A stretch of DNA of 24,000 nt from Actinobacteria bacterium UBA6100. GTDB lineage: Bacteria; Actinomycetota; Coriobacteriia; Anaerosomatales; Anaerosomataceae. The DNA lies in contig DIWS01000015.1 in assembly GCA_002423585.1 (NCBI GenBank), positions 22,743 through 46,742 on the forward strand, written 5' to 3'. Shown piece after piece: positions 5,820-23,594 of the stretch. Positions within the stretch are counted from its first letter, which is position 1, and the number at the start of each line of letters is the position of its first letter. Position numbers and translations under genes: made by a program. The notes under the pieces are model-generated. The model was not told the origin of the DNA and did no database searches. It saw only the letters and a program-made list of their open reading frames with translations.

Positions 5820-6869
5820 ATGGCAGAGATACGGCACTTCCCCGGCGTGAGGCATCTTCGGGCCGAGCCGTCGATGCATGTGGTGCGGTATCGCAACGGC
5901 GCTGCGGTGGGCAGCGGGCGCGGCCTCGCGTTCTGGTTCCGGCCGCTGTCGGCGGCCGTGGCGGAGATCCCGATGGACGACCGCGAGCTCACCATGCAGA
6001 TCCGCGGCATCACGCTCGACTTCCAGGAGGTCTACGCCCAGGGCGTGGTGACCTGGCGCGTGGCCGATGCCGACGCACTCGCCTCGCGCGTGGACTTCCA
6101 CATCGACCTGGTGAAGGGCCGCTGGGCGAGCGAGCCGCTCGAGCAGGTCTCGGGACTCCTCACGCGCATGGGTCAGGAGATCGCCCTTGCATGGATCGCC
6201 GAGCGTCCGCTCGAGGCGGTGCTCGCCGATGGCGTGGGTGCGCTGCGCACCCGCATCGCGCAGGCGCTCGCAGCCGAGAAGAGCCTCGGCGAGATGGGGC
6301 TCAGCGTCGTCACCGTGCGCATGGCCTCGGTGCGCCCCACTCCCGACGTGGAGAAGGCGCTCCAGACCCCGGTCCGCGAGGCCATCCAGCAGGACTCCGA
6401 CCAGGCGCTCTTCCAGCGTCGCGCGCTCGCCGTGGAGAAGGAGCGCGCGATCGCCGAGGCCGAGCTGCAGAACCGTATCGAGCTCTCGAAGCGCGAGGAG
6501 CAGCTCCTCGGCCAGCAGGGGGCCAACGCGAGGCTGCAGGCGCGTGAGGAAGCGGACGCGATGCGGATCCGCATGGAGGCCGACGCGGAGCGCACCGGGA
6601 TCAGCGCGCGGGCCGAAGCGGAGCGGGTGCGGGTGAGCGCCGAGGCCGAAGCCGAGGGGCTCCGGCTGGTGGAGCTGGCGCGCGCCGAGACCGAGCAGGC
6701 GATGATGGACGTCTACCGCGACCTGCCCGCCGAGGTCATGCGCGGGCTGGCGGCGCGCGAGTTCGCCGGCAAGCTGCAGCGGATCGAGCACCTCAACATC
6801 GCGCCGGACATGCTCGGCCAGCTCGTGGGCGACTTCCTCGGCGCGGCGACCGGGCGGCTGGAGGCGTGA
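5820..6869 (+). CDS. SPFH/band-7 (flotillin/stomatin-like) domain protein with no N-terminal TM segment
   Basis: An SPFH-like core is followed by a long Ala/Glu/Arg-rich coiled region (AIAEAELQNRIELSKREEQLL...EADAMRIRMEADAERTGISARAEAERVRVSAEAEAEGLRL). The SD is GAGGAGAGGAG. No hydrophobic anchor is visible. Confidence 0.75.
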   Translation: MAEIRHFPGVRHLRAEPSMHVVRYRNGAAVGSGRGLAFWFRPLSAAVAEIPMDDRELTMQIRGITLDFQEVYAQGVVTWRVADADALASRVDFHIDLVKGRWASEPLEQVSGLLTRMGQEIALAWIAERPLEAVLADGVGALRTRIAQALAAEKSLGEMGLSVVTVRMASVRPTPDVEKALQTPVREAIQQDSDQALFQRRALAVEKERAIAEAELQNRIELSKREEQLLGQQGANARLQAREEADAMRIRMEADAERTGISARAEAERVRVSAEAEAEGLRLVELARAETEQAMMDVYRDLPAEVMRGLAAREFAGKLQRIEHLNIAPDMLGQLVGDFLGAATGRLEA

Positions 6870-10754: not shown

Positions 10755-13394
10755 TCAGTCCTGCTCGCGTCTCACTTCACAGCGATCGGAGACGAACAGC
10801 ACCGCCCGCTGCTCGAGCACGTCGGCCCACAGCCACATCGAGCGGCCGTCCAGGTCCTCGGCATCGATGACGCGGAGCAGGTCGCCCCGGTGCGCCTCCC
10901 CGGGGAGCAGCCGCCCGAGTGCGTTGGGCAGCCCCTGGAGGAGGTCGGCGTTCAGCAACGTGTCCTGCGCGCCGGGCTTGATGCCCATGTACAGGATGTC
11001 CAGGTCCACGAGGTCGTTGAAGAAGTGCGTGCCGAGGGAGAGATCCGGGTTCAGCCCCGCATGCATCTCTGCGATCTCGCACAGCACCGTCGCGTTCTTG
11101 ATCTGTGACAGCGTGGCCGGTACACCCAGTTCGGGCATGCGCGTGCCCCAACGGCCGGGGCCGGCCAGCACGGTGCGGCGATCGTCGCCCGGCCGGTTCA
11201 TCACGCGGCCGACCAGTTCGGCCACGGCGAAGCGCTCCTGGGTGGGAAGCGCGCTGTACTCCTCGGGCACGACGTAGACGATCCGACCGATCTCGAGGGC
11301 CATGCTGTGCCCGATGATGGGGCCGCCTGTCTTGAGCAGCACGGTCGCCACCGGGATGTCCGCGGGCTCGGGAAGGTGCGTGAGCTCGCCCACGAAGTGG
11401 AACGGGCGGCACTGCAGCAGGTTGATGCGGTAGTCGGCGTCGTCGAGGAAGTTCACGGTGAACTCGATGTCCACCGGATGCCGGTACGCCTCGGCGATCG
11501 TCTGCATGATGGCGTGCATCTCGGCAGGGAACGCGGTCTGTGCGAGCAGCTTGTCGAAGGTGAGCACGTGCGAGAACACGTCGCGCATCCCGGCCTCGCG
11601 CGCGCGGCGTTCAAGATCGGCGTCTCGCGAGGCGAGCATCTCGAGCGGCAGGTTGTCCGCGGCCGAGGCGACGCGCTCGAAGCTTCGCGACACGTGCGCG
11701 TTCTCGTTGAGGTCGATGACGTTCACGATGTGCTGGCTGTACTTGCGCACCTCGTCAGACGAACCCTCCGGCCTGAGCGTGGGCGCGCTCAGGGCGACCA
11801 CCCGCGTGTAGTCGTCGTCGTGGCGGTCCACCGCCCGCGTGCCGAGGCCGAAGACCAGTCGGAGCATGCCCTGGGCCGGGTCGATACGCCGGTTCCAGAC
11901 GTAGGGGTTGAACGAGTAGCCCACGCCACCGATGTGTGGGTAGTACAGGTCGTCATGCAGCTCTCCCGAGACACGCTGCACCAGCAGCGCCATCTGCTCG
12001 TCGCGGTGGATGAGCCCGCGGTGGAGGCGGTACGAGAGTGCCTCGTGACTCATAGTGCTCGCGTAGATGGTGCGGACCGCCTCGATGAAATCCGCCAACC
12101 GTTGCTCGGGATCCCCCTGGTTACCGCAGAAGACGCTCTCGTACTTGCCCGAGAACGAGTTGCCGTACGCGTCCTCGAGCAGGCTGGACGAGCGCACGAT
12201 CACCGGCGACTGGCCGAAGTACTCCAGGATCTCCCGGAACTGGTCGGCGATGACCGGCGGCACGTTACCCGTGCGCAGACGCGTTTCGAGGGCCTCGGCA
12301 CGCTCGAAGAGGTCGTCGGCTGTCTTGAGGCGGTATCGCTCCCACCAACAGTCGTTCAGCACCAGGTAGCTGTAGAACACATCGGCGCCGATGTAGAAGG
12401 AGTCGTGCACCTCCAGACGCTCGGCCAGATCGGGCCTCTGGCGCGCGAGGATCTTACGTGCCAGGAGCATCCCCGCCGACTTGCCGCCGATCTGCCCCGT
12501 CCCGATCATCCGCTTGCCGATATCCAGCAGGTCCGAGAGGTCGAGATGCTCGACACACAGGCCGAAGACGTCGTCGGTCTCGTCGCGGCTGATCAGCATC
12601 CGGATCAGGCGGCGGGCATGCGCCGCCACCTCGTCATCGGAGGCCTCGCCCACTTCCAGCCGACGTTGCACGTTGCGCGCGTCGGCGAACGCGTTGGTCC
12701 ACGGGTCGCGCCAGTCGATGCTGGAATCGATCCACGGCTGTGGCATCGCGGCCCGGATCTCGGAGAGCACCACGCTGCGGGTGACCGGCCGCACGTCGTC
12801 GCCGGTCCAGGCGTGCAGCATGTACATCGTGGGTGAGCGGCGCTCCCAGACCTTGATCGGCAGGATGTACAGGTCGCCCTTGCTGCAGAAGATGTCGAGC
12901 ACCACCTGCGCGGTGGTGTGGATCGCACGGGTAGCGAGCGGTGTGTGGACGTCGCGCATCAGCATGAAGAGCGCGACGGTGTCGTAGTCGAAGAGGTACG
13001 GGCACGTGAGCCGGAAGAAGTTGCCCAGCATGCGGTCCGAGAACCAGTCCACCGCCAGTCCGGACAGTGAGTCGAACAGATAGTAGACGGCGTCGTGACC
13101 GTTATGGTCGATCACGGTGAGGATCTCCGAGATGAACTGCTCGAAGCCTGCGGCGGGGTCGAGTGAGTGCACCTCTGCAGGCATGCCGTCGGGCAAGAGC
13201 GGTTCGTGGTCGGCGAAGCGGAAGTACACGAGCTTCCGCCCGGCGTCGCGCGTGTACTCGCAGTACCGGTGCGCGAACGGCAGGAAGTGAGCGATGTCGC
13301 TCACCTGCAAGACGATGTTGTCACCCGCCCACACACCGTCGAGCACCCGGTCGAGGGCGGGGATCCCGCTGCTCAGGTCCTTGCGCTTTGACAT
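10755..13394 (-). CDS. Multidomain protein with an N-terminal KaiC/RecA-like domain lacking a P-loop, a PEP/pyruvate-binding (PPDK_N ATP-grasp) domain, and an uncharacterised C-terminal domain
   Basis: The N-terminus, SGIPALDRVLDGVWAGDNIVLQVSDIAHF...KLVYFRF...YLFDSLSGL, mirrors the KaiC-like layout GIPxLDxxLxGG...GxxGxGKT...IDSLS, but without GxxGxGKT. The central region carries PPDK_N motifs: IGGKSAGMLLA, VRSSSLLEDAYGNSFSGKYESV, MALLVQRV, GVGYSFNP and IEFTVNF..INLLQCRP. I see no canonical GGxTSHAAI swivel-His motif. Confidence 0.75.
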   Translation of the reverse strand: MSKRKDLSSGIPALDRVLDGVWAGDNIVLQVSDIAHFLPFAHRYCEYTRDAGRKLVYFRFADHEPLLPDGMPAEVHSLDPAAGFEQFISEILTVIDHNGHDAVYYLFDSLSGLAVDWFSDRMLGNFFRLTCPYLFDYDTVALFMLMRDVHTPLATRAIHTTAQVVLDIFCSKGDLYILPIKVWERRSPTMYMLHAWTGDDVRPVTRSVVLSEIRAAMPQPWIDSSIDWRDPWTNAFADARNVQRRLEVGEASDDEVAAHARRLIRMLISRDETDDVFGLCVEHLDLSDLLDIGKRMIGTGQIGGKSAGMLLARKILARQRPDLAERLEVHDSFYIGADVFYSYLVLNDCWWERYRLKTADDLFERAEALETRLRTGNVPPVIADQFREILEYFGQSPVIVRSSSLLEDAYGNSFSGKYESVFCGNQGDPEQRLADFIEAVRTIYASTMSHEALSYRLHRGLIHRDEQMALLVQRVSGELHDDLYYPHIGGVGYSFNPYVWNRRIDPAQGMLRLVFGLGTRAVDRHDDDYTRVVALSAPTLRPEGSSDEVRKYSQHIVNVIDLNENAHVSRSFERVASAADNLPLEMLASRDADLERRAREAGMRDVFSHVLTFDKLLAQTAFPAEMHAIMQTIAEAYRHPVDIEFTVNFLDDADYRINLLQCRPFHFVGELTHLPEPADIPVATVLLKTGGPIIGHSMALEIGRIVYVVPEEYSALPTQERFAVAELVGRVMNRPGDDRRTVLAGPGRWGTRMPELGVPATLSQIKNATVLCEIAEMHAGLNPDLSLGTHFFNDLVDLDILYMGIKPGAQDTLLNADLLQGLPNALGRLLPGEAHRGDLLRVIDAEDLDGRSMWLWADVLEQRAVLFVSDRCEVRREQD

Positions 13395-13423
13395 GTTCGT
13401 CGCCCGTCGCTGCCTGGGGGCGT

Positions 13424-13454
13424 GAGCGGTTCACAGCTTCGGCGGGAACCGCTC
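13424..13454 (-). terminator. Hairpin between the dus stop and the start of the KaiC-like/PPDK_N gene (candidate terminator or attenuator)
   Basis: gagcggttc (13424-13432) and gaaccgctc (13446-13454) form 9-bp arms. The 13-nt loop contains cttcgg. There is no U-tract. Confidence 0.3.
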
Positions 13455-13507
13455 GCACCACACGTTGCAAGAGTGTACCCGTTCATGATGGGGCACGGCG
13501 ACGGTCG

Positions 13508-14509
13508 CTACGCTTCACGCCCCTTGAGGAAGCTCGCATACTCGGCCAGTAGCGCATCGAGTTCCGCCGACGAGGTGATGTGGTTCACGCGGTCCCGGAC
13601 CCGGCTTGCGCCCGACATGCCGGTGATGTACCAGCCCACGTGCTTGCGCATGCGCGTGACCGCGTACTCTCCGCTGAACGTCACGAGCGCTCGCGCGTGC
13701 TCCCGGGCCATCTCGACGCGTTCGAGGGCGGTCGGGGGAGCGAGCACCTCGCCACGTTCGATGAGCGCGCGCGCCTCCCGGAATATCCACGGGTTGCCCT
13801 GCGCACCACGAGCGACCATCACCGCGTCACAACCTGTACGCTCGAGCATCGCCTTCGCGTCGGCGGCTGAGAACACATCACCGCTCCCGATCACGGGTAC
13901 GCTCACCGCAGCCTTCACCCGGGCGATGATGTCCCAGTCGGCCGTGCCGCGGTAGAACTGCTGTCGCGTGCGGCCGTGCACGCACACGGCGGCCGTGCCG
14001 GCCGCCTCCATCGCAAGGGCGAACTCGACCGCGTTGACGCTCGCATCGTCCCAGCCCTTGCGGAACTTGATGGTCACCGGGACGGGTACCGCATCGGCCA
14101 CCTGGGAGACTATGGCGGCCGCCACATCCGGCGTGCGCATGAGCCCCGCCCCGTCACCGCGGGCAGCCACCTTCGAGACGGGACAGCCCATGTTGATGTC
14201 GATGCATGCCACGTCGGCGCCGTACTCGGCCATCACGCGCGCTGCCTGCTCGGCCATGATCGCAGGCTCCGAGCCGAAGAGCTGCACCGCGCACGGTGTC
14301 TCGGCGGGATCGAACGTGAGGAGCGATCTGGTCACCGCGGCGTCCGGGTTGTAGTGCAGTCCCTTCGCGCTGATCATCTCCGTGTAGGTGAGCGCCGCGC
14401 CCATCCGCTTGCAGATGCCGCGGAACGGCGCTTCGGTCACACCGGCCATCGGGCCGAGGAGGACTGAGCCGGGTGCGAGGGCGTGTTCCAGCGAGGGGGG
14501 CGGGTTCAT
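13508..14509 (-). CDS. dus: tRNA-dihydrouridine synthase (DusB-like)
   Basis: LLGPMAGVTEAPFRGICKRMGAALTYTEMISAKGL...CAVQLFGS...DINMGCPVSKV...VTIKFRKGWD...VHGRTRQQFYRGTADWD are classic Dus TIM-barrel motifs, including the catalytic Cys in GCP. Confidence 0.92.
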   Translation of the reverse strand: MNPPPSLEHALAPGSVLLGPMAGVTEAPFRGICKRMGAALTYTEMISAKGLHYNPDAAVTRSLLTFDPAETPCAVQLFGSEPAIMAEQAARVMAEYGADVACIDINMGCPVSKVAARGDGAGLMRTPDVAAAIVSQVADAVPVPVTIKFRKGWDDASVNAVEFALAMEAAGTAAVCVHGRTRQQFYRGTADWDIIARVKAAVSVPVIGSGDVFSAADAKAMLERTGCDAVMVARGAQGNPWIFREARALIERGEVLAPPTALERVEMAREHARALVTFSGEYAVTRMRKHVGWYITGMSGASRVRDRVNHITSSAELDALLAEYASFLKGREA

Positions 14510-14558
14510 GCGCCCTATGGTACGACGAGGCCGGGAGTCATGCTTGGCCGCACGCCGA

Positions 14559-15479
14559 CTATCTCAGCGTGAGTGCGGCGATGAGGTAGCCCGAGGCCAG
14601 GAGGGCGTTGAGACCGAGTACGGCCATCACGTTGGCGCCCATGGCCGGGATGATCTCTTCGAATCCGTCGTAGTTGCGCGCGGTTCCGGCGATCGCCTTG
14701 AACGCTGCGATCGCGGCCAGAAGAGCCAGAAGCGCCCAGGGGGTGAGCGCGCCGAGCGCAACGCTGATGATGATGACCACGAATGCCAGGGCTTCGGCCG
14801 TTGCGTACAGCCAGCGGGCCTTCGACTTACCCAGCTTGATCACCAGGTGGCTGCGCCCGCCCCTGATATCGGCATCGGTATCGGGGAACTCGTTGAGCAA
14901 CAGCAGGTTATACGTGAGCAGTCCGGCGGGGATCCCTGAGACCCAGGCCACCGTATCGAGCCGTCCGGTGAGCAGGAAGTAGACGCCCACCACCGGCAGC
15001 GTGCCAAGGCACAGACCCGCGAACAGCTCACCGAGACCGATGCGGGTGAGTATCGGCGTGTACGCGATCACCGAGATGACGCCGATCGCGCCTATGACCA
15101 TCAGCGGCCAACCGGCGGTCCATGCGAGATACAGGCCGATGAGCGTCCCTGCTGCCAGCGTGCCGCTGCCGAGGACCAGTGCTCCGCGGACGCTCATGAC
15201 CCCTGCGGGTATCAGTCCGCTGCCCCCCGAGAACGGCGTCTGCCGAACCTCCTTGTCGATACCGCTTCGCGCGTAGTCGTGCCAGTCGTTGAGCACGTTG
15301 GAACTCGCGTGCAGCAACACAAGCCCGATCATCGCCAGGACGACCAGGTCCCACCGGAACGTGCCGGTACCGGTGACCTGCATCTGCCAGTAGGCGAGCG
15401 CGGCACCGTGGGCGACAAGCAGTACCGAGAGGATCAGGAACTGCGGTCGCGTTTCGAGAAACCACTTGGATGTCGACAC
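14559..15479 (-). CDS. UbiA-family aromatic prenyltransferase (MenA-like)
   Basis: The protein is polytopic and hydrophobic. Asp-rich motif 1 is NVLNDWHDYARSGID (NDxxDxxxGxD, MenA-like). Motif 2 is NEFPDTDADIRGGRSHLV. I chose the GTG at 15479 (VSTSKWFLETRPQF), which follows a G-run. The upstream 64 codons of the ORF-track version are Arg/Pro-rich, and its start falls inside the loop of the hairpin at 15652-15686. Confidence 0.8.
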   Translation of the reverse strand: MSTSKWFLETRPQFLILSVLLVAHGAALAYWQMQVTGTGTFRWDLVVLAMIGLVLLHASSNVLNDWHDYARSGIDKEVRQTPFSGGSGLIPAGVMSVRGALVLGSGTLAAGTLIGLYLAWTAGWPLMVIGAIGVISVIAYTPILTRIGLGELFAGLCLGTLPVVGVYFLLTGRLDTVAWVSGIPAGLLTYNLLLLNEFPDTDADIRGGRSHLVIKLGKSKARWLYATAEALAFVVIIISVALGALTPWALLALLAAIAAFKAIAGTARNYDGFEEIIPAMGANVMAVLGLNALLASGYLIAALTLR

Positions 15480-15651
15480 CAGACCCCCCCAACACGTGAC
15501 TCTTCTCGGCTCAGCGGGCCGCTCTTCGGTCCCGCGTGAGCAGTTCCGCCGAGCGCTGGAGGAGAGTGTAGCGCACCAGCGAGCTCGGTGGGCCTCGCCG
15601 TGGATCGGCGCTCGTGCGGACAAATGTCTTGTGCCAGAACCGCCTTCACGT

Positions 15652-15686
15652 CGAAGGGGGCGGTGCAACACGCACCGCCCCCTTCG
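15652..15686 (-). terminator. Very strong GC hairpin downstream of the heliorhodopsin gene (candidate intrinsic, I-shaped terminator)
   Basis: cgaagggggcggtgc (15652-15666) and gcaccgcccccttcg (15672-15686) form a 15-bp perfect stem with the 5-nt loop aacac. It lies 52 nt after the HeR stop. No U-tract is present on either strand. Confidence 0.5.
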
Positions 15687-15737
15687 GAGGCCTCTATCGT
15701 TGCGCGGGATACGCGGGTCTCGATCGTATGCCGCTGT

Positions 15738-16496
15738 CTACTGCGGGATGAGCACGTTCGCGAACACGAGCCAGGCCAGCAGCGACTTGGCGGCGAGGCT
15801 CAGGAACACATACGAGGACTCGCCGAACAGGTAGTCCTTCCACTTGCCCACCTGCTTGTACTGGAGGACCTGGTTGATGGCGAAGCTGTTGAAGAACACG
15901 AACATCGACGCGAAGATCCAGTACACGAACGTGGGGGTGAGATCGCTCGCGCCCGGTCCCCAGAGGTAGTCCGCGATCGCGAGCCACGGGAAGATCCCCG
16001 CGATGCTGCCGAAGATGAACGCTGTCCAGTCGGGCTTGCCCGGCTGCTCGTACTTCTCCATGAGCCAGCCGAACAGGATCATCGATGCGTTCACGCCGAA
16101 GATGGCTATGAGCGCGGCGATGTCGGTGATGCCCACGAGCGAGGAGATGAGCACGACCATCAGCGATGAGCTGAACGCGTACTCGACCCACCGGTAGTAG
16201 TTGTGGTTCTTCTTGAGCCCCTCGACGTACTTGGCGTAGGCCGGTCCGGCGATGATGAAGTGCGCCGTCGCGGAGAGGAACAGGAACAGCGCCACGCCGA
16301 GGCCGAGATCGTACTCGAAGTAGAGCTGCGGCTGGCTGAAGATCCCCGGACCCGGCCGGGTGTTCATCCACTGCGCCGTCACGGGGACGGCGTAGGCCTC
16401 AGAGAGCGCCACCATGGCCGCCCCCTGGAGCAGATGGAACAGGCCCATCACGATGTTGTAGATCCTGAGTCGTTTGAAGCGGCGATCGTCGTCCAT
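15738..16496 (-). CDS. Heliorhodopsin (retinal-binding 7-TM photoreceptor)
   Basis: The 252-aa protein is collinear with heliorhodopsin 48C12 as I recall it. Matching segments are GLFHLLQ, SATAHFII, NYYRWVEYAFSSSLMVVLI (counterion Glu), IAIFGVNASMILFGWLMEKY, FFNSFA and FLSLAAKSLLAW (Schiff-base Lys). A GGGAGGA SD lies 4 nt upstream of the ATG. Confidence 0.88.
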   Translation of the reverse strand: MDDDRRFKRLRIYNIVMGLFHLLQGAAMVALSEAYAVPVTAQWMNTRPGPGIFSQPQLYFEYDLGLGVALFLFLSATAHFIIAGPAYAKYVEGLKKNHNYYRWVEYAFSSSLMVVLISSLVGITDIAALIAIFGVNASMILFGWLMEKYEQPGKPDWTAFIFGSIAGIFPWLAIADYLWGPGASDLTPTFVYWIFASMFVFFNSFAINQVLQYKQVGKWKDYLFGESSYVFLSLAAKSLLAWLVFANVLIPQ

Positions 16497-16574
16497 GTCA
16501 TCCTCCCTCGGTGCTGTCGGTCGTGTGTCATATACCCCAGCAGGTATGTGGATAACACTCCTTCAGGAACGATC

Positions 16575-16994
16575 TTACGACCTTCTCGGCCAGTTCATCC
16601 AGGTGATCGAGAGTTGTAGGACCGTTGCCGTACTCACCCAGAGGAGATAGGGGAGCAGGGCGAGGCTGGCGAACCACGCGTACGGCCAGAGAGCGACCAT
16701 GCACCACACGATGGTGGCGAGCACCGCCAGGATGTCCGCGGCAGCCAGGCGCAAGCTCCTGAGGCCGAACTGGATCGGCGTGAAGGCGACGTTCGCGACC
16801 ACATTTAGCGTGATCGGGATGAGTACTCCGGCGGGCAGCGTGCCCTGCGCGACGCGGAACACCGAGTAGCCGAACACGACGATGATGATCGGGTACAGCA
16901 GCGACCAGATCGCGCCGATCGTGCTGCCCGCAGGCGTCCAGTCTGGTTTCCTCAGGCTTTCGTACCAGCCCCGCCACTCCCGGCGGTCACTCAT
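16575..16994 (-). CDS. tspO: TspO/MBR-family (tryptophan-rich sensory) protein, apparently lacking TM1
   Basis: WYESLRKPDWTPAGSTIGAIWSLLYP matches the TspO WYxxLxKPxWxPPxxxFxxVWxxLY loop and TM2. The C-terminal LLPYLLWVSTATVLQLSITWMN matches TM5. Only 4 hydrophobic helices are visible. The ATG at 16994 overlaps the upstream stop (ATGAGTGA). An alternative GTG lies at 17003. Confidence 0.75.
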   Translation of the reverse strand: MSDRREWRGWYESLRKPDWTPAGSTIGAIWSLLYPIIIVVFGYSVFRVAQGTLPAGVLIPITLNVVANVAFTPIQFGLRSLRLAAADILAVLATIVWCMVALWPYAWFASLALLPYLLWVSTATVLQLSITWMNWPRRS

Positions 16995-17418
16995 CGTGGC
17001 CACCGGGATCGCTCACGCGGCCGACAAGTAGCACGTATGCCGCCGCCATCACCAGCAGTCCCGAGCCGTCGAAGGCGATGAAGCGAGTGATGCTCCTGGC
17101 CAGGGTGTCATGTCCCGCGGGGAGGGTGCCCAGCAGCCATGCCTCGCCCACAAGGCCGATCGCCTGCTGTGCCAGGACGACCGCGAACAGTGCCCGATAT
17201 CGATCCGGCCGCCAGATCACGAGCGGATACGTGGCATTCCACATCATGAATGCGATGCCGAGTCCTCGCACGGCCGCTATGCCGGGCACGCCGTCGAGCT
17301 CGAAGCCGGTGGCGTACCGCTCGGGGGTCAGCAGGAACGCGAGCGCACACTGCACGTTGATCGCAAAGACCGCGGCTACGGCGATCCTGGCCACCCATCC
17401 GGTGATCTGTCCGCGCAT
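16987..17418 (-). CDS. Hypothetical 4-TM membrane protein (143 aa)
   Basis: Four hydrophobic segments are visible. A GGGAGG SD lies 6 nt upstream of the ATG at 17418. The gene is tightly packed between the TRIC-like and TspO genes. I recognise no family. Confidence 0.6.
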   Translation of the reverse strand: MRGQITGWVARIAVAAVFAINVQCALAFLLTPERYATGFELDGVPGIAAVRGLGIAFMMWNATYPLVIWRPDRYRALFAVVLAQQAIGLVGEAWLLGTLPAGHDTLARSITRFIAFDGSGLLVMAAAYVLLVGRVSDPGGHDE

Positions 17419-17430
17419 ATCGGCCTCCCG

Positions 17431-18249
17431 CTACCTGGTTGGACCGCGGCGGCGGCTGATGCGACGGGCCACGCCGAAGACAGCCGGCGACAGGTCGGGT
17501 GCCGGCTTCGTCTCCCACCTAAGCCATGCGGACAGACCCCGCACGGCGATCGCGAGAGCGACGGCGACCATGCCTGCCCACCCCTTGGTGATGTGCACAT
17601 AGTCGACCAGGAGTACGAAGAACGTCGCTGACGCCATGGCGGCCAGCCCGTAGAGCGTGCCCGGCTTGAGCAGCTTGGGCACGTCGCCGACGAGGATGTC
17701 ACGCAGCATCCCACCGCCCACCGCTGTGATCGTCCCGAGCATGATCGCGGGCAGAACGAGCAGGCCCGCCCTTAGTGCCTTGTCGGCGCCCACGATCGCA
17801 AACAGCCCGAGTGAGACCGCGTCCACCGCGAAGAGCACCGGTTTGAGGCGATGCACCACCTGCGTGAAGAAGTAGGCGAGCGCCGAGGCGAGGAGCGCGG
17901 TGAGCAGGTAGCTGCTCGAGGAGAAGGCTGCTACGCCGTGGTCGAGCAAGATCACGTCGCGGATGATGCCGCCGCCGAGTCCGGTGGTGATCCCGAGCGT
18001 TGCCATCCCCATGATGTCGAGCCTGTGATCGGCCGCGGCGAGACCTCCGAGCACGGCTCCGACGAACACGGCAGCGAGTTCGAGTGACAGGGGGACCGAG
18101 ACCTGCCCGGCGGTGGCGGGCAGCGTTGTGATCGCCGCGGAGGGCAGCATGCCTGCGGCGATGCTCGTGAGCGCCGACTCCACGGCGCCGGTCGTTTCCG
18201 CAGCAGCGGTGGCGGCCGTCGATACCAGTGCGAGCAGCGTGGCGTCCAT
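17431..18249 (-). CDS. TRIC/UPF0126 (YadS-like) trimeric cation channel family membrane protein
   Basis: The duplicated glycine motif TGLGGGIIRDVILL ... TAVGGGMLRDILVG is characteristic of UPF0126/TRIC. The start is uncertain. I chose the ATG at 18249 (MDATLLALV). The 75 upstream codons of the ORF-track version look non-coding. Confidence 0.75.
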   Translation of the reverse strand: MDATLLALVSTAATAAAETTGAVESALTSIAAGMLPSAAITTLPATAGQVSVPLSLELAAVFVGAVLGGLAAADHRLDIMGMATLGITTGLGGGIIRDVILLDHGVAAFSSSSYLLTALLASALAYFFTQVVHRLKPVLFAVDAVSLGLFAIVGADKALRAGLLVLPAIMLGTITAVGGGMLRDILVGDVPKLLKPGTLYGLAAMASATFFVLLVDYVHITKGWAGMVAVALAIAVRGLSAWLRWETKPAPDLSPAVFGVARRISRRRGPTR

Positions 18250-18412
18250 GAGCCGAATCGTAGCACCTGGTGGCCGGTGCCAGCGCACGCTCCGCCCGAG
18301 CTCAAGCGAACCCCCGGTTGTGACGACACTCAGGGTGGAGCACCTGATCATCGGCGCATGGTAGTCTGCGTAGTGCGAATCGACCGCGGGGAACGTTCGG
18401 AGGTCTCTGACT

Positions 18413-19885
18413 GTGAGCAAGATCCTGTTAGTGGTGCCCCCGTACCATTGCTGGGGCGTCCAGATCATCGGCACGTGGCCGCCGCTCCAGCTGGCGTACG
18501 TGGGTTCGTCGGCGGAGAAGGCCGGCTATGAGGCACGGATCTACGATGCGATGAGCAAGGACCGCACGTTCGACGACATCCGCGCCGAGATCGAGCGTTT
18601 CAAGCCTGACGTGGTGATGGCGTTCGACTACCTGCCGGTGACGGGGTCCATCAGTACCGCCAGTGTGCCGGGAGCACTCAAGGCCCTGGCGATCGCCAAG
18701 GAGGTCGACCCCGGCGTGGTGACTATGATCGGGGGCCCGCTGCCGACCTCGCTGCCCGCACAGATCCTCGGCGATCCCGCCAACCGCGTCGACTATGTGC
18801 TTCGAGGTGAGATGGACGAGACCGCCGAGGAGCTTCTGCGCAGGCTTGCGGAGGGTTCGTCTGTCGACGACGTGCAGGGCATCGCGTTCGTGCGCGACGG
18901 GGAGATCGTCATGACCCCGCTTCGGCCGCACATCGCAGACCTCGACCCCATCACGCCCGCGTGGCATCTGCTCGAATGGGATGCGTACCACTACAACATC
19001 GAGCCATGGGGCCGCATGGCCTCGATCCTCGGCTCGCGCGGCTGCATGATGGGCTGTTCGTTCTGCAGTCAGCGCGTCTTCTGGCGCGGCGACTGGCGCG
19101 CTCGGACCCCCGAGCGCGTGATCGAGGAGATCCGCGAACTCGTCGAGAAGTACCAAGTCGAGTTCATCACGATGATCGACCCGTATCCCACATGCGATCG
19201 CGAGCGATGGGAGCATCTGCTCGACCTGCTCATCGCCGAGGCGATGCCGGTGAAGATCCTCATGGAGACGCGCGTGGAGGACATCATCCGGGACGCGGAC
19301 ATCCTGCCGAAGTACCATGCGGCTGGCGTGATCCACCTCTATATGGGCCTTGAGGCGAGTAGCGACGAGATGCTCGACAGCTTCAACAAGGGCACCGATA
19401 TGAACCTGAACAAGCGCGCACTCGACCTCGCGCGCGAGAACGACCTGACCTCGGAGGCATCGTTCATGATCGGTTCTCCCAGCGAGACCTGGGAGTCCGT
19501 CGAACGGACGATCGAGGTGGCGATCCGCCTGAACCCCGACATCGCGGTCTTCCCCGTGATCACGCCGATGCCCGGTACGCCGATCCACGAAGAGTACAAG
19601 GATCGGATCCGCGTGACCGACTGGTCGCAGTACAACCTCGCCACACCGATCGTCGAGCCGCACGAGATGACGATCGACGAGGTGAACCAGGCGCTCGCGA
19701 AGTGCTACATGGAGTTCTACCGCCACAAGGCCAGGGAGGTGCTCGCGCTGCCCGACAGCTTCAAGCGGCGGTACATGCTGAGCGCCTTCAAGGAGATGAT
19801 GACGGGCTACAGCGATCAATTCACCGCGCTCGGCATCACGCTGCCGATGCTGCCCGACGGCATGCTTGCCCCGCACCAGAAGTGA
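18413..19885 (+). CDS. B12-binding-domain radical SAM protein (class B-like)
   Basis: The N-terminus shows a Rossmann-like cobalamin-binding layout (KILLVVPPYH...LQLAYVGSSAEKAGYEARIYD). The radical SAM cluster motif is GCMMGCSFC (CxxxCxxC). The start is a GTG with a GGAGG SD 9 nt upstream. Confidence 0.85.
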   Translation: MSKILLVVPPYHCWGVQIIGTWPPLQLAYVGSSAEKAGYEARIYDAMSKDRTFDDIRAEIERFKPDVVMAFDYLPVTGSISTASVPGALKALAIAKEVDPGVVTMIGGPLPTSLPAQILGDPANRVDYVLRGEMDETAEELLRRLAEGSSVDDVQGIAFVRDGEIVMTPLRPHIADLDPITPAWHLLEWDAYHYNIEPWGRMASILGSRGCMMGCSFCSQRVFWRGDWRARTPERVIEEIRELVEKYQVEFITMIDPYPTCDRERWEHLLDLLIAEAMPVKILMETRVEDIIRDADILPKYHAAGVIHLYMGLEASSDEMLDSFNKGTDMNLNKRALDLARENDLTSEASFMIGSPSETWESVERTIEVAIRLNPDIAVFPVITPMPGTPIHEEYKDRIRVTDWSQYNLATPIVEPHEMTIDEVNQALAKCYMEFYRHKAREVLALPDSFKRRYMLSAFKEMMTGYSDQFTALGITLPMLPDGMLAPHQK

Positions 19886-20706
19886 TGGACGATCGCGAGC
19901 GTATAGCCGCCAACCGCGAACTGTGGCAGCGCTGGACCGCGCTCCACGTACCTTCGGACTTCTACGACGCCGAGGGTTTCATCGCCGATCCTTCCGCGCG
20001 TCCGTTCGACCGTATCGTCGGCGAACTTGTCGGGGATGTGCGCGGCATGCGGGCCCTGCACCTTCAGTGCCACTTCGGCATGGACACGGTGCGCCTGGCG
20101 CTCCGGGGCGCGGAGGCAACCGGGCTCGACTTCTCGAGTGAGGCGATCGCAGCGGCGCGCGAGCTGTCCGCACGGATGGGCGTCCCGGTGACCTTCATCG
20201 AGGGCGATGTCACCGATCCGCCGGCCGAGTTGCCGGAAGGCGTGTTCGACCTGGTCTTCACCTCGTACGGCACCATCTCGTGGTTCCCGGACCTCGGGCC
20301 ATGGGCGCGGACGATCGCGAGCCGGCTGGCGCCGGGCGGGGCCTTCAAGATCGCCGATAGCCATCCGACCACCTGGATCTTCGACGACGAGGCCGAGGAT
20401 CCGACGCTGCGCGTGCGGTACTCGTACTTCATGCGCGAGGCGTTGCCATGGGACGAACACGGCTCGTATGCGGTCCCGCTCGACGAGCACATCGGAACGT
20501 CCCACTCCTGGCAGCACACCTTCGAGGACATCATCGGTGCGCTCACCGGTGCGGGGCTTGTGATCGAGGAGCTCCGTGAGTTCCCGCTTCTGGCCTGGAA
20601 GTACACACCCGGCATGGTCGAGCGTGAGCCCGGGCTCTTCGGCCTGCCGGACGATCAGCCCGAAGTGCCGCTCATGTTCACGCTCACGGCCCGCAAACCG
20701 CGTTAG
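19885..20706 (+). CDS. Class I SAM-dependent methyltransferase
   Basis: MDDRERIAANRELWQRW...ALHLQCHFGMDTVRLA (a motif I variant)...DLVFTSYGTISWFPDL...LAPGGAFKIADSHP. The ATG overlaps the radical SAM stop (TGATG). The ORF-track start at 19702 lies inside the upstream gene. Confidence 0.8.
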   Translation: MDDRERIAANRELWQRWTALHVPSDFYDAEGFIADPSARPFDRIVGELVGDVRGMRALHLQCHFGMDTVRLALRGAEATGLDFSSEAIAAARELSARMGVPVTFIEGDVTDPPAELPEGVFDLVFTSYGTISWFPDLGPWARTIASRLAPGGAFKIADSHPTTWIFDDEAEDPTLRVRYSYFMREALPWDEHGSYAVPLDEHIGTSHSWQHTFEDIIGALTGAGLVIEELREFPLLAWKYTPGMVEREPGLFGLPDDQPEVPLMFTLTARKPR

Positions 20707-20992: not shown

Positions 20993-21937
20993 GTGAATCG
21001 GCGCGTGCTGCTCATCATCGCTGTACTCATCCTCACGGCGGCAGCTGCCGCTTCTTCTTCGGTGATATGTGACCGGCAGGACGTTCTTGAGGTCTCGCTT
21101 GCGGAGCCCGGGGGGGTGCCGGCACAGACGACTCCCGAAGCAGAGCCGCTGAGAATCGCCGTGGCAGCTATGACATCGCCGAAGAGCACCTTCGAGCACT
21201 ACCGGGACATCCTCAACTACATCGGCCACCAGACCGGCAGATCGGTCGAACTCGTTCAGCGGGAGACCTCCCTGGAGATCAACGACCTTATCGAGCAAGG
21301 CCAGATCGACATGGCCTTTGTAAGCGCCGGGGCGTATATCGAGGGTCACGACGAGTTCGGTATGGAGATCCTGGCCGCTCCTGTGGTCTACGGGGAGCCG
21401 GTCTTCTACTCGTACACGATCGTTGATGCGGACAGCACCGCGACCAGCCTCGCCGACCTCAGGGGAGCGGCATTCGCCTTCACGGACCCGATTTCCAACA
21501 CCGGGACGCTCGTCCCGACCTATGAGCTCGGCCAGATGAATGAGACGCCGGACACGTTCTTCAGCGATTACATCTATACGTACAGTCACGACTGGTCGAT
21601 CGAGGCGGTGGCAGACGGTCTCGTGGACGGCGCGGCGGTGGACAGCCTGGTCTACGACTACATGGAAGCCACCGGCGATCCGGTGATCGAGAAGACTCGC
21701 GTGTTGACGAAGTCGGGGCCTTACGGGATCCGTCCGGTCGTCGTGAACCCGGACATCGATCCGGAGTTGAAGCGGCAGCTGCGCTCGATACTGCTTGAGA
21801 TGCACGAGGATCCGGAGGGGCGAGCCATCCTTGCCGCGATCAAGATCGACCGTTTCGAAGTCATAGGCGACAGCGCGTACGACGCGATTCGTGAGATGCA
21901 GGCGTGGATGGATGAACATGTCGCTGTCAACGACTAG
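20993..21937 (+). CDS. PhnD-like (phosphate/phosphonate ABC-type) periplasmic substrate-binding protein, probably a sensor accessory
   Basis: The N-terminal signal or anchor is MNRRVLLIIAVLILTAAAAA. LRIAVAAMTSPKSTFEHYRDILNYI, IDMAFVSAGAYI, FAFTDPISNTGTLVP and HDWSIEAVADGLVDGAAVDS fit the PhnD/PBP type-2 pattern. The start is GTG. Confidence 0.7.
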   Translation: MNRRVLLIIAVLILTAAAAASSSVICDRQDVLEVSLAEPGGVPAQTTPEAEPLRIAVAAMTSPKSTFEHYRDILNYIGHQTGRSVELVQRETSLEINDLIEQGQIDMAFVSAGAYIEGHDEFGMEILAAPVVYGEPVFYSYTIVDADSTATSLADLRGAAFAFTDPISNTGTLVPTYELGQMNETPDTFFSDYIYTYSHDWSIEAVADGLVDGAAVDSLVYDYMEATGDPVIEKTRVLTKSGPYGIRPVVVNPDIDPELKRQLRSILLEMHEDPEGRAILAAIKIDRFEVIGDSAYDAIREMQAWMDEHVAVND

Positions 21938-21953
21938 GCCTTCCCGGGGCCCG

Positions 21954-23594
21954 ATGTCCCTCCGCCGGCAGATCTGGCTGGTTGTGGTCACAGCGGTCCT
22001 ATCGCTCGCGTTGCTGAGTGGCGCCGTGATACAGGCCATCATGCAGAGAGCGCTTGAGGAGTCCACCGCCTCACAGGGCATCTCGATCGCCAGTGCGTTC
22101 GCCGCCACGGCAACGGACCATGTGCTTCTCGATGATCGTCTCCAACTGATGGATCACGTACGTCTCACCGTGGAGTCACAGTCTGATGTGGTCTACATCT
22201 TCGTGATCGATCGCCATGGTGACGTGATCGCATCCACCTTCGGCAAGGCGGTTCCTCCCGGGCTGCTTGATCTTGCCAGCCCATCCGAAGGCGAGGAGTA
22301 CTCGCTCCAGAGCCTGTCCACCGAGGAGGGCCGGGTGCTCGACATCGCGGTACCCATCATGGCCGGGGAGGCGGGCTTCGCCCATGTGGGGCTGTCGGAG
22401 GCGCGCTCGCAGGCAGCGATGAGACGGACGGCACTCACATTGCTCGTCGCGATGCTCGGCATGCTCGGCATCGCGCTGATGATCTCGCTCGGCGGGGGTC
22501 GCATGATCGCGAAGCCGCTTGAGCAGTTGGCCGAGGTCGCGTCGAGGGTGGGGACGGGCGACCTGACGGTGCGGGCCCCCGTGGAGGGCGAGAAGGAGAT
22601 CGTGCTGGTCGCCACCGCGTTCAACAAGATGCTCGGTGCGCTCGAGGAGGACATCGCGCGCCGCGAGGCCGTCGAGGACGATCTCGAGCGGGCACGCGAC
22701 GAGCTCGAGGCGCGGGTCATCGCCCGGACCGCCGACCTCGCCGACGCCAACGAGGAACTCACCTCGATGAACGAGGAGATGGCGGTCGCCAACGAGGAGC
22801 TCACAGCGATGAATGAGGAGTTGATCTCGCTCAACGAGGATCTCGAGCATGCGAACAGTGATCTGGAAGCGGCGAACCGTGCGGTCGTGGAGGCCACCCG
22901 AGCCAAGGCGGACTTCCTTGCGGCGATGAGTCACGAGCTCCGGACGCCGCTCAACTCGGTCATCGGGTTCTCGGACATCATGTTGCGCGAGATGTCGGGA
23001 CCGCTCACCGGCGAGCAGCGACGCCAGCTTGAGATGGTCCGCTCGTCGGGTTCGTATCTCCTCACGCTCATCAACGACGTACTGGATATCGCCCGGATGG
23101 ACCGCGGTCAGCTGCTTCCCGATCTGTCGCTCGTGGACCTCCGCGAGGTGGTGGAACATGCGTTCACGGCGTTCCACGCCATCGGAGCCGAAAAGGGTCT
23201 CGAGATGCGACTCGTTCTGCCCGACACGGATTGCCGGATCATGACCGACCCGACCCGGTTCGAGCAGATACTCGTGAACCTGCTCGGCAACGCGGTGAAG
23301 TTCACCGCGGAGGGCTGGATCGAGTCGCGGGTCGTACGGTCGGATGGGATGATCGAGATCACGGTGGCGGACAGCGGTCACGGAATCGCCGCCGAGGACA
23401 TCCCGCGCGTCTTCGAGGAGTTCTACCAGGTACACACCGAGGCGGGAACACACATAGGAGGCACGGGGCTGGGCCTTGCCATCTCCCGGCGGCTTGCAGC
23501 AGCACTGGGCGGCACGCTCACACTCGAAAGTGAGCTCGGCCGGGGTTCAATGTTCACGCTGCGGCTGCCGGCCGAAGACCCCGCTGGCGACTGA
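21954..23594 (+). CDS. Sensor histidine kinase (2 TM with an extracytoplasmic domain, HAMP, a NEEL-heptad coiled coil, HisKA and HATPase_c)
   Basis: TM1 is IWLVVVTAVLSLALLSGAVIQAI and TM2 is LTLLVAMLGMLGIALMISLGG. The HAMP region includes PLEQLAEVASRVGTGDLTV. The H-box is FLAAMSHELRTPLNSVIGFSD, the N-box is LVNLLGNAVKFT, and the G-boxes are DSGHGI and GTGLGLAISRRLA. The start is ambiguous: ATG 21954 (chosen), ATG 21918 or 21912, or GTG 21891, the last three overlapping the upstream gene. Confidence 0.85.
   Translation: MSLRRQIWLVVVTAVLSLALLSGAVIQAIMQRALEESTASQGISIASAFAATATDHVLLDDRLQLMDHVRLTVESQSDVVYIFVIDRHGDVIASTFGKAVPPGLLDLASPSEGEEYSLQSLSTEEGRVLDIAVPIMAGEAGFAHVGLSEARSQAAMRRTALTLLVAMLGMLGIALMISLGGGRMIAKPLEQLAEVASRVGTGDLTVRAPVEGEKEIVLVATAFNKMLGALEEDIARREAVEDDLERARDELEARVIARTADLADANEELTSMNEEMAVANEELTAMNEELISLNEDLEHANSDLEAANRAVVEATRAKADFLAAMSHELRTPLNSVIGFSDIMLREMSGPLTGEQRRQLEMVRSSGSYLLTLINDVLDIARMDRGQLLPDLSLVDLREVVEHAFTAFHAIGAEKGLEMRLVLPDTDCRIMTDPTRFEQILVNLLGNAVKFTAEGWIESRVVRSDGMIEITVADSGHGIAAEDIPRVFEEFYQVHTEAGTHIGGTGLGLAISRRLAAALGGTLTLESELGRGSMFTLRLPAEDPAGD
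22749..22874 (+). repeat. Six tandem 21-nt (heptad) repeats inside the kinase gene
   Basis: NEELTSM NEEMAVA NEELTAM NEELISL NEDLEHA NSDLEAA. At DNA level these are imperfect AACGAGGAGCTCAC-type 21-mers, in frame. Confidence 0.7.

Follow-up and report, generated by a model that had tools for sequence, protein, structure and literature searches.

A heliorhodopsin gene beside a TM1-less TspO and a TRIC-like channel gene in uncultured Coriobacteriia: probably the history of one small lineage rather than a conserved functional module

The heliorhodopsin gene and its membrane-protein neighbors

The 24,000-nt stretch of DNA analyzed here (the window) comes from Actinobacteria bacterium UBA6100, an uncultured member of the Coriobacteriia (GenBank assembly GCA_002423585.1, contig DIWS01000015.1, positions 22,743 to 46,742), and carries on its minus strand a heliorhodopsin (HeR) gene that follows the genes of three other membrane proteins, namely a TRIC-like channel of the UPF0126 family, an uncharacterized four-helix protein (TM4), and a short protein of the TspO/MBR family. 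In a sequence-only reading, made from the letters without database searches, this arrangement was taken for a light- or photo-oxidative-stress-responsive membrane module with the channel or TspO as the target of the HeR. The comparison with related loci described below points to a different model, in which the HeR is probably an autonomous gene and its adjacency to TspO and TRIC goes back to the history of one small lineage and does not amount to a conserved functional module. The four genes are as follows.

15738..16496, minus strand: heliorhodopsin (HeR), 252 aa, intact; matches PF18761 and NF038020 and is aligned to 48C12
16575..16994, minus strand: short TspO/MBR protein, 139 aa, lacking the first transmembrane helix (TM1); PF03073, 93.5 bits
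16987..17418, minus strand: TM4, uncharacterized four-helix membrane protein, 143 aa; AlphaFold2 (AF2) model with a predicted local distance difference test score (pLDDT) of 91
17431..18249, minus strand: UPF0126/TRIC-like channel (Pfam 'Gly_transporter', twice), 272 aa; PF03458, 107 bits, in two stretches

The window, which has a G+C content of 62-74%, is identical to part of the 181.8-kb contig TOLCLC_10000798 of the JGI metagenome 3300002498, on which an independent JGI gene call gives the identical four genes, and the locus has also been assembled independently from the runs SRR943314 and SRR943315. On the minus strand the genes follow one another in the order TRIC-like UPF0126, TM4, TspO, HeR, UbiA/MenA-like, DusB, PPDK_N-domain protein, and P-type ATPase. 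As read from the sequence, 12 nt separate the TRIC-like gene from TM4, the ATG of TspO overlaps the stop codon of TM4 by 8 nt, and a gap of 78 nt lies between TspO and HeR, which bears out the gene order and the spacings that had been reported from the letters. The accompanying statement that the HeR ends the same-strand cluster stands only by virtue of a 15-bp hairpin after the gene, since UbiA and DusB continue on the same strand.

Identity and integrity of the heliorhodopsin

The HeR of the window is a genuine and intact member of the known heliorhodopsin family. It matches Pfam PF18761 with 319 bits (cut-off 26.7) over the full length of the profile (1-242/242) and the NCBIfam equivalog NF038020 with 331 bits (cut-off 100), and in the alignment to the 48C12 structure 6SU3 (E 6.5e-76) its residues H21, H79, E105, and K237 correspond to H23, H80, E107, and K241 of 48C12, with E105 being the counterion Glu and K237 the Schiff-base Lys. 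Both 48C12 (6SU3/6SU4, 6UH3) and TaHeR (6IS6) are full-length homologues of the protein, with E values of 6.5e-76 and 8.7e-60, respectively, and they have in common with it the Schiff-base Lys of helix 7, the sole Glu counterion of helix 3, the two His residues, as well as the FGVNASMILFGW and FFNSFA motifs; all of the hallmark motifs quoted in the sequence-only reading were found to be present. Unlike 48C12 and TaHeR, the HeR of the window belongs to an uncultured Coriobacteriia lineage. Its nearest named relatives are metagenome-assembled genomes (MAGs) labelled Coriobacteriia, and the HeRs of Coriobacteriia and Thermoleophilia, which are mainly sediment-derived, have been placed together in cluster C5 (Bulzu et al., PMC8612252). 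By homology to 48C12 the protein would be expected to bind retinal and to undergo a photocycle, and the solved HeR structures suggest for it an inverted topology, with a cytoplasmic N-terminus, and a long photocycle without ion pumping.

The constraint on the gene was assessed against L089, one of the same-locus relatives described in the next section. Between the two loci the HeR is 94% identical in amino acid sequence and has a ratio of nonsynonymous to synonymous substitution rates (dN/dS) of 0.07, whereas the neighboring genes have ratios of 0.19-0.37 (TspO 0.26, TM4 0.37, Dus 0.19) and identities of 80% (Dus), 79% (TRIC), 71% (TspO), and 67% (TM4). From this low ratio and high identity it follows that the HeR is under strong purifying selection and that the gene is in use. 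With the key residues intact as well, the earlier description of the protein as a functional-looking photoreceptor appears to be sound.

It was also observed that the dS of the HeR (0.39) is lower than that of the adjacent genes (0.57-0.88) in the same comparison, which could reflect either codon constraint or a more recent exchange of HeR alleles among relatives. The 97.7% identity of a HeR fragment in the relative L097 likewise hinted at a recent exchange. Against it, this fragment spans the motif that is conserved best, and genomes sharing the locus come together coherently in the HeR tree.

Same-locus relatives and a deletion scar

The locus can be recognized in a number of related genomes and contigs, which are referred to by their locus handles and in which the genes are arranged as listed below (rSAM, radical S-adenosylmethionine protein; MT, methyltransferase; ORF, open reading frame).

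Window: rSAM-MT, divergent from TRIC-TM4-TspO-HeR-UbiA-Dus-PPDK
L089: TRIC-TM4-TspO-HeR-Dus
L099: TM4-TspO-HeR
L107 and L111: TM4-HeR-Dus-PPDK
L001: MT, 73-aa ORF, HeR, Dus
L006: MT, HeR, Dus, PPDK
L095: rSAM, TRIC-TM4-Dus, with a clean junction of 20 nt between TM4 and Dus
L097: rSAM, TM4, relic, UbiA, Dus

The anchors of this locus are the MT gene upstream, with or without the rSAM gene, and Dus downstream. The rSAM-MT pair is kept in L095 and L097, the MT gene is present without rSAM in L001 and L006, and in L001, L006, L089, L095, L097, L107, and L111 Dus is found on the downstream side of HeR or TM4. Between the anchors, TRIC, TspO, HeR, and UbiA are each found with and without the others; HeR is present without TspO in four of these loci (L001, L006, L107, and L111), and TRIC-TM4 is present without HeR in L095.

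The relative nearest to the window by its flanks is L097, in which UbiA is 90% and rSAM and MT are 86% identical to their counterparts in the window, and it carries a deletion scar at 5922-6712 of GCA_011640815.1. As mapped by blastn, the breakpoints of which were preferred because a global MAFFT alignment aligned the deletion badly, the TRIC leader runs there straight into TM4, and TM4 together with approximately codons 1-28 of TspO (window 17431-16910) is joined at a GGCGCG microhomology to an internal HeR fragment of 86 nt (window 15953-15868, 97.7% identical), beyond which a second deletion reaches as far as the leader of UbiA (window 15572). In searches the fused ORF is similar to HeR (E 3e-13) as well as to TspO (E 3e-9). 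This TspO/HeR fusion relic implies that the order TM4-TspO-HeR-UbiA predates the split between the window lineage and L097, and the scar indicates that L097 lost TRIC, TspO, and HeR after that split.

Survey of heliorhodopsin neighborhoods

When each GTDB species was represented by one genome, a scan gave 577 HeR-encoding stretches, the best 80 of which were examined together with as much as 10 kb of sequence on either side (flanks summing to 985 kb; at least 1 kb upstream in 69 loci and at least 5 kb in 47), and a second set consisted of 80 metagenome contigs that were found with the HeR protein. Homologues of TspO, TM4, the TRIC-like protein, UbiA, and rSAM were found within 10 kb in 0/80 of the species-representative loci in phmmer searches that admitted E values as weak as 5, and profile HMMs made from 120 homologues each of TspO and TM4 likewise gave 0/80, with the window itself, run alongside as the positive control, being scored as expected. 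In the metagenome set TspO accompanied the HeR in a single contig (1/80), that of L099. The enrichment of TspO or UPF0126 near HeR in related genomes, by which the sequence-only reading itself had proposed to judge its module, is thus not seen in the species loci.

Closer to the window, HeRs that are at least 78% identical to that of the window occur in about 25 distinct lineages, and TspO lies immediately upstream in three of them, namely the window, L099 (HeR 96% identical), and L089 (94%), all of which belong to one sub-clade. The fourth member of this sub-clade, L100 (HeR 93%), has an upstream region of the L001 type, with the 73-aa ORF and not TspO. The recurrence in independent lineages that would mark a conserved HeR-effector operon is therefore absent both from the 80 species loci and from the approximately 25 related lineages, as the three cases in the latter fall into a single sub-clade.

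The survey brought up two further features of HeR neighborhoods. In the HeR clade of the window, HeR is most commonly preceded, directly and on the same strand, by a gene for a MarR-family regulator, which was seen in seven lineages (L007, L008, L009, L012, L091, L101, and L104) and also in a distant Actinomycetes MAG (L065), and in eight lineages a DUF1295 membrane protein is encoded divergently next to HeR; MarR and DUF1295 are both absent from the window, and MarR is outside the classes of HeR neighbors in the published surveys considered here. In addition, L047, L053, L059, and L070, which are freshwater actinobacterial MAGs of the Nanopelagicales/Planktophila, have a homologue of Dus at a distance of 6-7 kb downstream of HeR, and this is probably order-level synteny, not a functional link.

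Expression signals of the heliorhodopsin gene

The HeR gene is surrounded by the following signals.

16501..16507, minus strand: Shine-Dalgarno sequence GGGAGGA, 4 nt upstream of the HeR ATG, read from the sequence
16530..16556, minus strand: conserved block GTTA-N5-ATACC-N6-GGTAT-AT, candidate HeR-specific promoter/operator, with a palindrome at 16532-16547
15652..15686, minus strand: perfect 15-bp GC-rich hairpin with a 5-nt loop and no U-tract, candidate factor-independent terminator; found by repeat search, 100% complementary

The strong Shine-Dalgarno sequence that had been ascribed to the HeR is indeed its own, and GGGAGG or GGAGG is conserved upstream of HeR in an alignment of five loci (the window, L089, L099, L100, and L001). 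In the otherwise diverged 5' region of these loci the only other invariant stretch is the GTTA-N5-ATACC-N6-GGTAT-AT block, which sits 33 nt upstream of the HeR start codon, inside the 78-nt gap between TspO and HeR, and which is kept whether TspO or the 73-aa ORF is the upstream gene. The block is present upstream of HeR in six distinct related sequences, with the palindrome being located at 1223-1238 in L089, 1000-1015 in L099, 382-397 in L100, and 7946-7961 in L001. With one mismatch allowed, 0.12 occurrences of the palindrome would be expected per window; its sole exact match in the window is the one at 16532-16547, and one unrelated match with one mismatch lies inside the UbiA gene. The combination of invariant arms and a variable spacer suggests a protein-binding operator that may overlap a -10-like TATAT.

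On the other side of the gene, the hairpin starts 51 nt after the HeR stop codon, and the fold of this region has a z of -4.24, with 0/200 shuffles folding equally well. A scan for terminators with a T-run missed it and returned just two weak intragenic matches, no more than were found in shuffles. Without a U-tract, the hairpin resembles the 'I-shaped' terminators that are common in Actinobacteria. The possibility that the hairpin is a repeated mobile element was considered and rejected, as it is unique to the window lineage. These predicted signals suggest that the HeR may be transcribed from a promoter of its own, to which read-through from TspO could add, and that transcription would end before UbiA.

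The TspO, TM4, and TRIC-like proteins

The assignment of the TspO gene to the TspO_MBR family was upheld by Pfam, the protein being a short form without TM1. It scores 93.5 bits against PF03073 (gathering score 24) over profile positions 15-145 only, and 69 bits against the alphaproteobacterial equivalog NF047825, which has a cut-off of 180, and its alignment to 4UC1 and 2MGY begins at residue 28-30, approximately. The AF2 model (pLDDT 89.6) contains four long helices, at residues 23-50, 55-77, 81-102, and 107-133, and thus differs from the five-helix bundle (TM1-TM5) that defines TspO/MBR proteins; in a Foldseek comparison with BcTSPO and RsTSPO the TM-score was 0.80 by query (TMq) and about 0.72 by target (TMt), the latter reflecting the unmatched TM1 of the targets. 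With BcTSPO (4RYI) and RsTspO (4UC1) the protein shares the TspO_MBR domain, the WY..L.KP.WTP loop motif, and the Trp of the last helix (PY(L/F)LW), and it differs from both in that it starts at the loop between TM1 and TM2 and has four long helices, not five. Because the orthologues found in Coriobacteriia all have a similarly short length of 128-148 aa, the TM1-less form is a conserved variant and not a truncation.

This has consequences for the chemistry that may be ascribed to the protein. In the solved TSPO structures five helices build the ligand pocket and TM1 is among them, and tetrapyrrole binding and light-dependent degradation are known from work on BcTSPO and RsTspO. As the TspO of the window is without TM1, this tetrapyrrole chemistry is therefore not to be assumed for it. 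Three TspO orthologues from other Coriobacteriia (69-71% identity, as close as the TspO of L089) adjoin genes for a flavodoxin-like protein, an MFS fragment, and a GyrI-like protein, and neither HeR nor TM4 nor TRIC is found near these three.

The TM4 protein has no match in Pfam or NCBIfam and no match of its fold in the PDB better than E 0.1, in agreement with its initial description as a four-helix protein of no known family, and the four-helix bundle is predicted with confidence by the AF2 model. Its homologues number 503, and every taxon-labelled one among the 120 listed comes from Coriobacteriia or Actinobacteria; among 1.84 billion proteins the family has 310 cluster representatives. 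Nine residues are invariant (N21, W60, N61, Y64, P65, Q84, E92, H103, and D117), among them the buried polar residues N21, N61, Q84, E92, H103, and D117, and the family has an invariant FxMWNxTYP motif. Homologues also occur in gut Eggerthellaceae (Gordonibacter, Adlercreutzia), where no HeR was found within the surrounding 6 kb.

The UPF0126/TRIC assignment holds as well, as two PF03458 repeats are above threshold and the protein matches the solved prokaryotic TRIC channels 5WUF, 5WUC, and 5H36 (E 5e-23 to 2e-17, with 5WUF being the best) and also 5H35. Like the TRIC channels 5WUF and 5H36 it is built of two PF03458 repeats, each of which contains a GGG motif, seen in the translation as GLGGGIIRD and VGGGMLRD, and unlike them it would, with the ATG at 18249 as its start, have an N-terminal extension of approximately 55 residues. 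This start is uncertain, with JGI calling the same 272-aa gene. It has to be noted that the current Pfam name of PF03458 is 'Glycine transporter'; no glycine riboswitch was detectable upstream of the UPF0126 gene by an Rfam search, which gave no family at the gathering score over the whole window and none at E <=1 over 15400-18500.

Flanking genes

The genes that flank the four membrane-protein genes in the window include the following.

14559..15479, minus strand: UbiA-family (MenA-like) prenyltransferase, 306 aa; PF01040, 114.7 bits; same 306-aa gene in the JGI call
13508..14509, minus strand: DusB, tRNA dihydrouridine synthase, the conserved downstream anchor; TIGR00737, 379 bits (cut-off 293)
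10755-13394, minus strand: PPDK_N-domain protein, 879 aa; match to PPDK_N (ATP-grasp-like nucleotide-binding domain) over residues 301-667 only
18413-19885, plus strand: divergent B12-binding rSAM protein (BchE-like); PF02310 and PF04055; TIGR02026 (BchE) 369.6 bits, below the cut-off of 481
19885-20706, plus strand: SAM methyltransferase (MT), abutting rSAM; part of the conserved upstream anchor

The UbiA gene, which has a GTG start after a G-rich stretch and lies 258 nt downstream of HeR, belongs to the UbiA superfamily by its PF01040 score of 114.7 bits and falls below the cut-offs of the MenA equivalog models (123.5 against 277 bits at best, and 90 against 102 for TIGR00751). Carotenoid and retinal biosynthesis families are not found among the scanned ORFs of the window, in agreement with what had been noted from the letters. 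A tetrapyrrole link between the BchE-like rSAM protein and TspO was considered and rejected, since L095 and L097 keep the rSAM-MT pair although both are without TspO.

The first approximately 300 residues of the PPDK_N-domain protein have no family match, and L006, L107, and L111 likewise retain the gene after Dus. Between the Dus stop codon and the start of this next gene there is an imperfect 14-nt inverted repeat (13419-13459), a possible terminator of a UbiA-Dus unit. A PhnD-like periplasmic binding protein and an sCache-HAMP histidine kinase are encoded on the plus strand at 20993-23594, 4.5-7 kb upstream of HeR. Kinases in the vicinity of HeRs are emphasized by Bulzu et al., but this pair is retained in L097 despite the loss of HeR there.

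Published neighbors and partners of heliorhodopsins

Glutaredoxin, glutathione peroxidase (GSHPx), glyoxalase, catalase, and histidine kinases have been described near HeRs by Bulzu et al. (PMC8612252), for which an oxidative-stress role was proposed in the same work, and Kim et al. (PMC11109279) distinguish ten groups of HeR neighbors, namely glutamine synthetase (GS), NAD+ synthetase, photolyase, MerR, TerC, ABC transporter, short-chain dehydrogenase/reductase (SDR), alpha/beta hydrolase, DUF2177, and DUF2238. Neither list contains TspO, TM4, UPF0126, Dus, or UbiA, and a literature search gave no paper that combines heliorhodopsin with TspO. In two systems a partner has been identified, AbHeR with glutamine synthetase (PMC9529153) and OcHeR with OmrDE, an upstream-encoded membrane ABC transporter that OcHeR modulates in response to light (PMC11109279). 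The locus of the window is similar to these in that the HeR lies on the same strand as its candidate effectors and, in the case of OcHeR, in that the effectors are membrane proteins encoded upstream, as TspO, TM4, and TRIC would be here. It differs from them in that the neighbor classes of the AbHeR and OcHeR systems recur across many HeR loci and that binding has been demonstrated experimentally, whereas TspO, TM4, and the TRIC-like protein recur only within one small lineage.

Models for the arrangement

In the model that is favored here, the HeR would be an intact retinal-binding sensory or regulatory rhodopsin, with retinal binding assigned by homology, that is expressed as a largely autonomous unit having its own Shine-Dalgarno sequence, a palindromic promoter- or operator-like element, and a hairpin after the stop codon. 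It would fill a variable slot in a syntenic block that is restricted to a group of uncultured Coriobacteriia and that may be written as rSAM-MT, divergent from TRIC-TM4-[TspO]-[HeR]-[UbiA]-DusB-PPDK-like, where the bracketed genes appear to have been gained and lost independently. The juxtaposition of TspO and HeR would have arisen once, at a place where membrane-protein genes shuffle in and out, and any signaling by the HeR may proceed by protein-protein contact, as in the published HeR systems. Since the bracketed genes come and go independently of one another, the adjacency of HeR, TspO, and TRIC is likely to be a matter of lineage history, and the effector of the HeR cannot be read from its neighborhood.

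Several findings weigh against this model. The order TM4-TspO-HeR and its spacing (78 vs 70 nt) survive in relatives in which the flanking proteins have diverged to about 70-80% identity, no terminator is predicted between TspO and HeR, which makes read-through co-transcription possible, and a sigma-70 consensus scan of 13300-18700 found no site; the promoter or operator role of the palindrome is proposed from its conservation and form. Moreover, 160 of the more than 880 detected HeR loci were inspected, and published HeR partners are themselves lineage-specific and in some cases upstream membrane proteins, so that a narrow distribution does not disprove a partnership; what it removes is the comparative argument for one.

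The same findings can be turned into the opposite model, proposed by the sequence-only reading, according to which the HeR is co-expressed with the TRIC-like, TM4, and TspO proteins and its slow photocycle modulates one of them by contact, as part of a light or photo-oxidative-stress response. The genes do share a strand with short gaps and no predicted terminator before HeR, the order TM4-TspO-HeR is retained in L089 and L099 and TM4 stands directly upstream of HeR in L107 and L111 too, and there is a precedent in the regulation of an upstream-encoded transporter by a HeR (PMC11109279) as well as a proposed role in oxidative stress (PMC8612252). We nevertheless regard this model as unlikely, given that none of the 80 species-level HeR loci has TspO, TRIC, or TM4 within 10 kb, that the adjacency of TspO has a single origin in one sub-clade, the member L100 of which is without TspO, that HeR, TspO, TM4, and TRIC each occur here or elsewhere without the others, that the HeR retains its own conserved upstream element, and that tetrapyrrole chemistry is not to be taken for granted in a TspO without TM1; the module in its original form is not supported. 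A narrower version, in which the HeR of this Coriobacteriia lineage recruited the upstream TM1-less TspO, TM4, or both as light-regulated effectors, is rather improbable as well. If true, such a recruitment would constitute a new class of HeR partner, by which the perception of light through retinal would be coupled to the handling of tetrapyrroles or to a cation channel.

Two further models were considered. A functional coupling of the HeR to the flavin-dependent DusB, which is its most persistent same-strand neighbor in these genomes, could be argued from the presence of Dus downstream in six lineages from three HeR sub-clades (the window, L089, L001, L006, L107, and L111) and from a gap of only about 10 nt between HeR and Dus in L089. 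However, Dus stays in place in L095 and L097, which are without HeR, and hence behaves as a syntenic anchor that does not depend on HeR; in the window HeR is set apart from DusB by a hairpin, a gap of 258 nt, and the UbiA gene, at least eight other lineages of the clade have MarR-HeR adjoining DUF1295 and no Dus, and the literature search found no paper combining heliorhodopsin with dihydrouridine, all of which makes this coupling very improbable. It might also be supposed that the HeR is dispensable or decaying in a little-lit organism without a retinal pathway nearby, in which case the neighborhood would be meaningless as the gene is unused. Consistent with that, the nearest relative by flanks, L097, deleted HeR and TspO, L095 is cleanly without both, and no retinal or carotenoid genes were found in the window, but a dN/dS of 0.06-0.07 with all catalytic residues intact, the conservation of the Shine-Dalgarno sequence and of the upstream element, and the fact that most HeR-only genomes keep HeR without de novo retinal synthesis (preprint of PMC8612252) leave hardly any room for this view.

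Implications

As the function of HeRs is mostly inferred from gene neighborhoods, a false module misleads, whereas a true one yields a testable partner. The locus of the window shows how the two can be told apart, namely by independent presence and absence within one syntenic block together with a deletion scar. Under the favored model of a largely autonomous HeR, the leads that it offers are narrower ones: the palindromic element specific to HeR, which could identify the regulator of HeR expression, the recurrent MarR-HeR pairing, the conserved TM1-less TspO, and the relatives with and without HeR, which as natural variants suit comparison, L097 being in effect a natural knockout of HeR, TspO, and TRIC in the closest relative.

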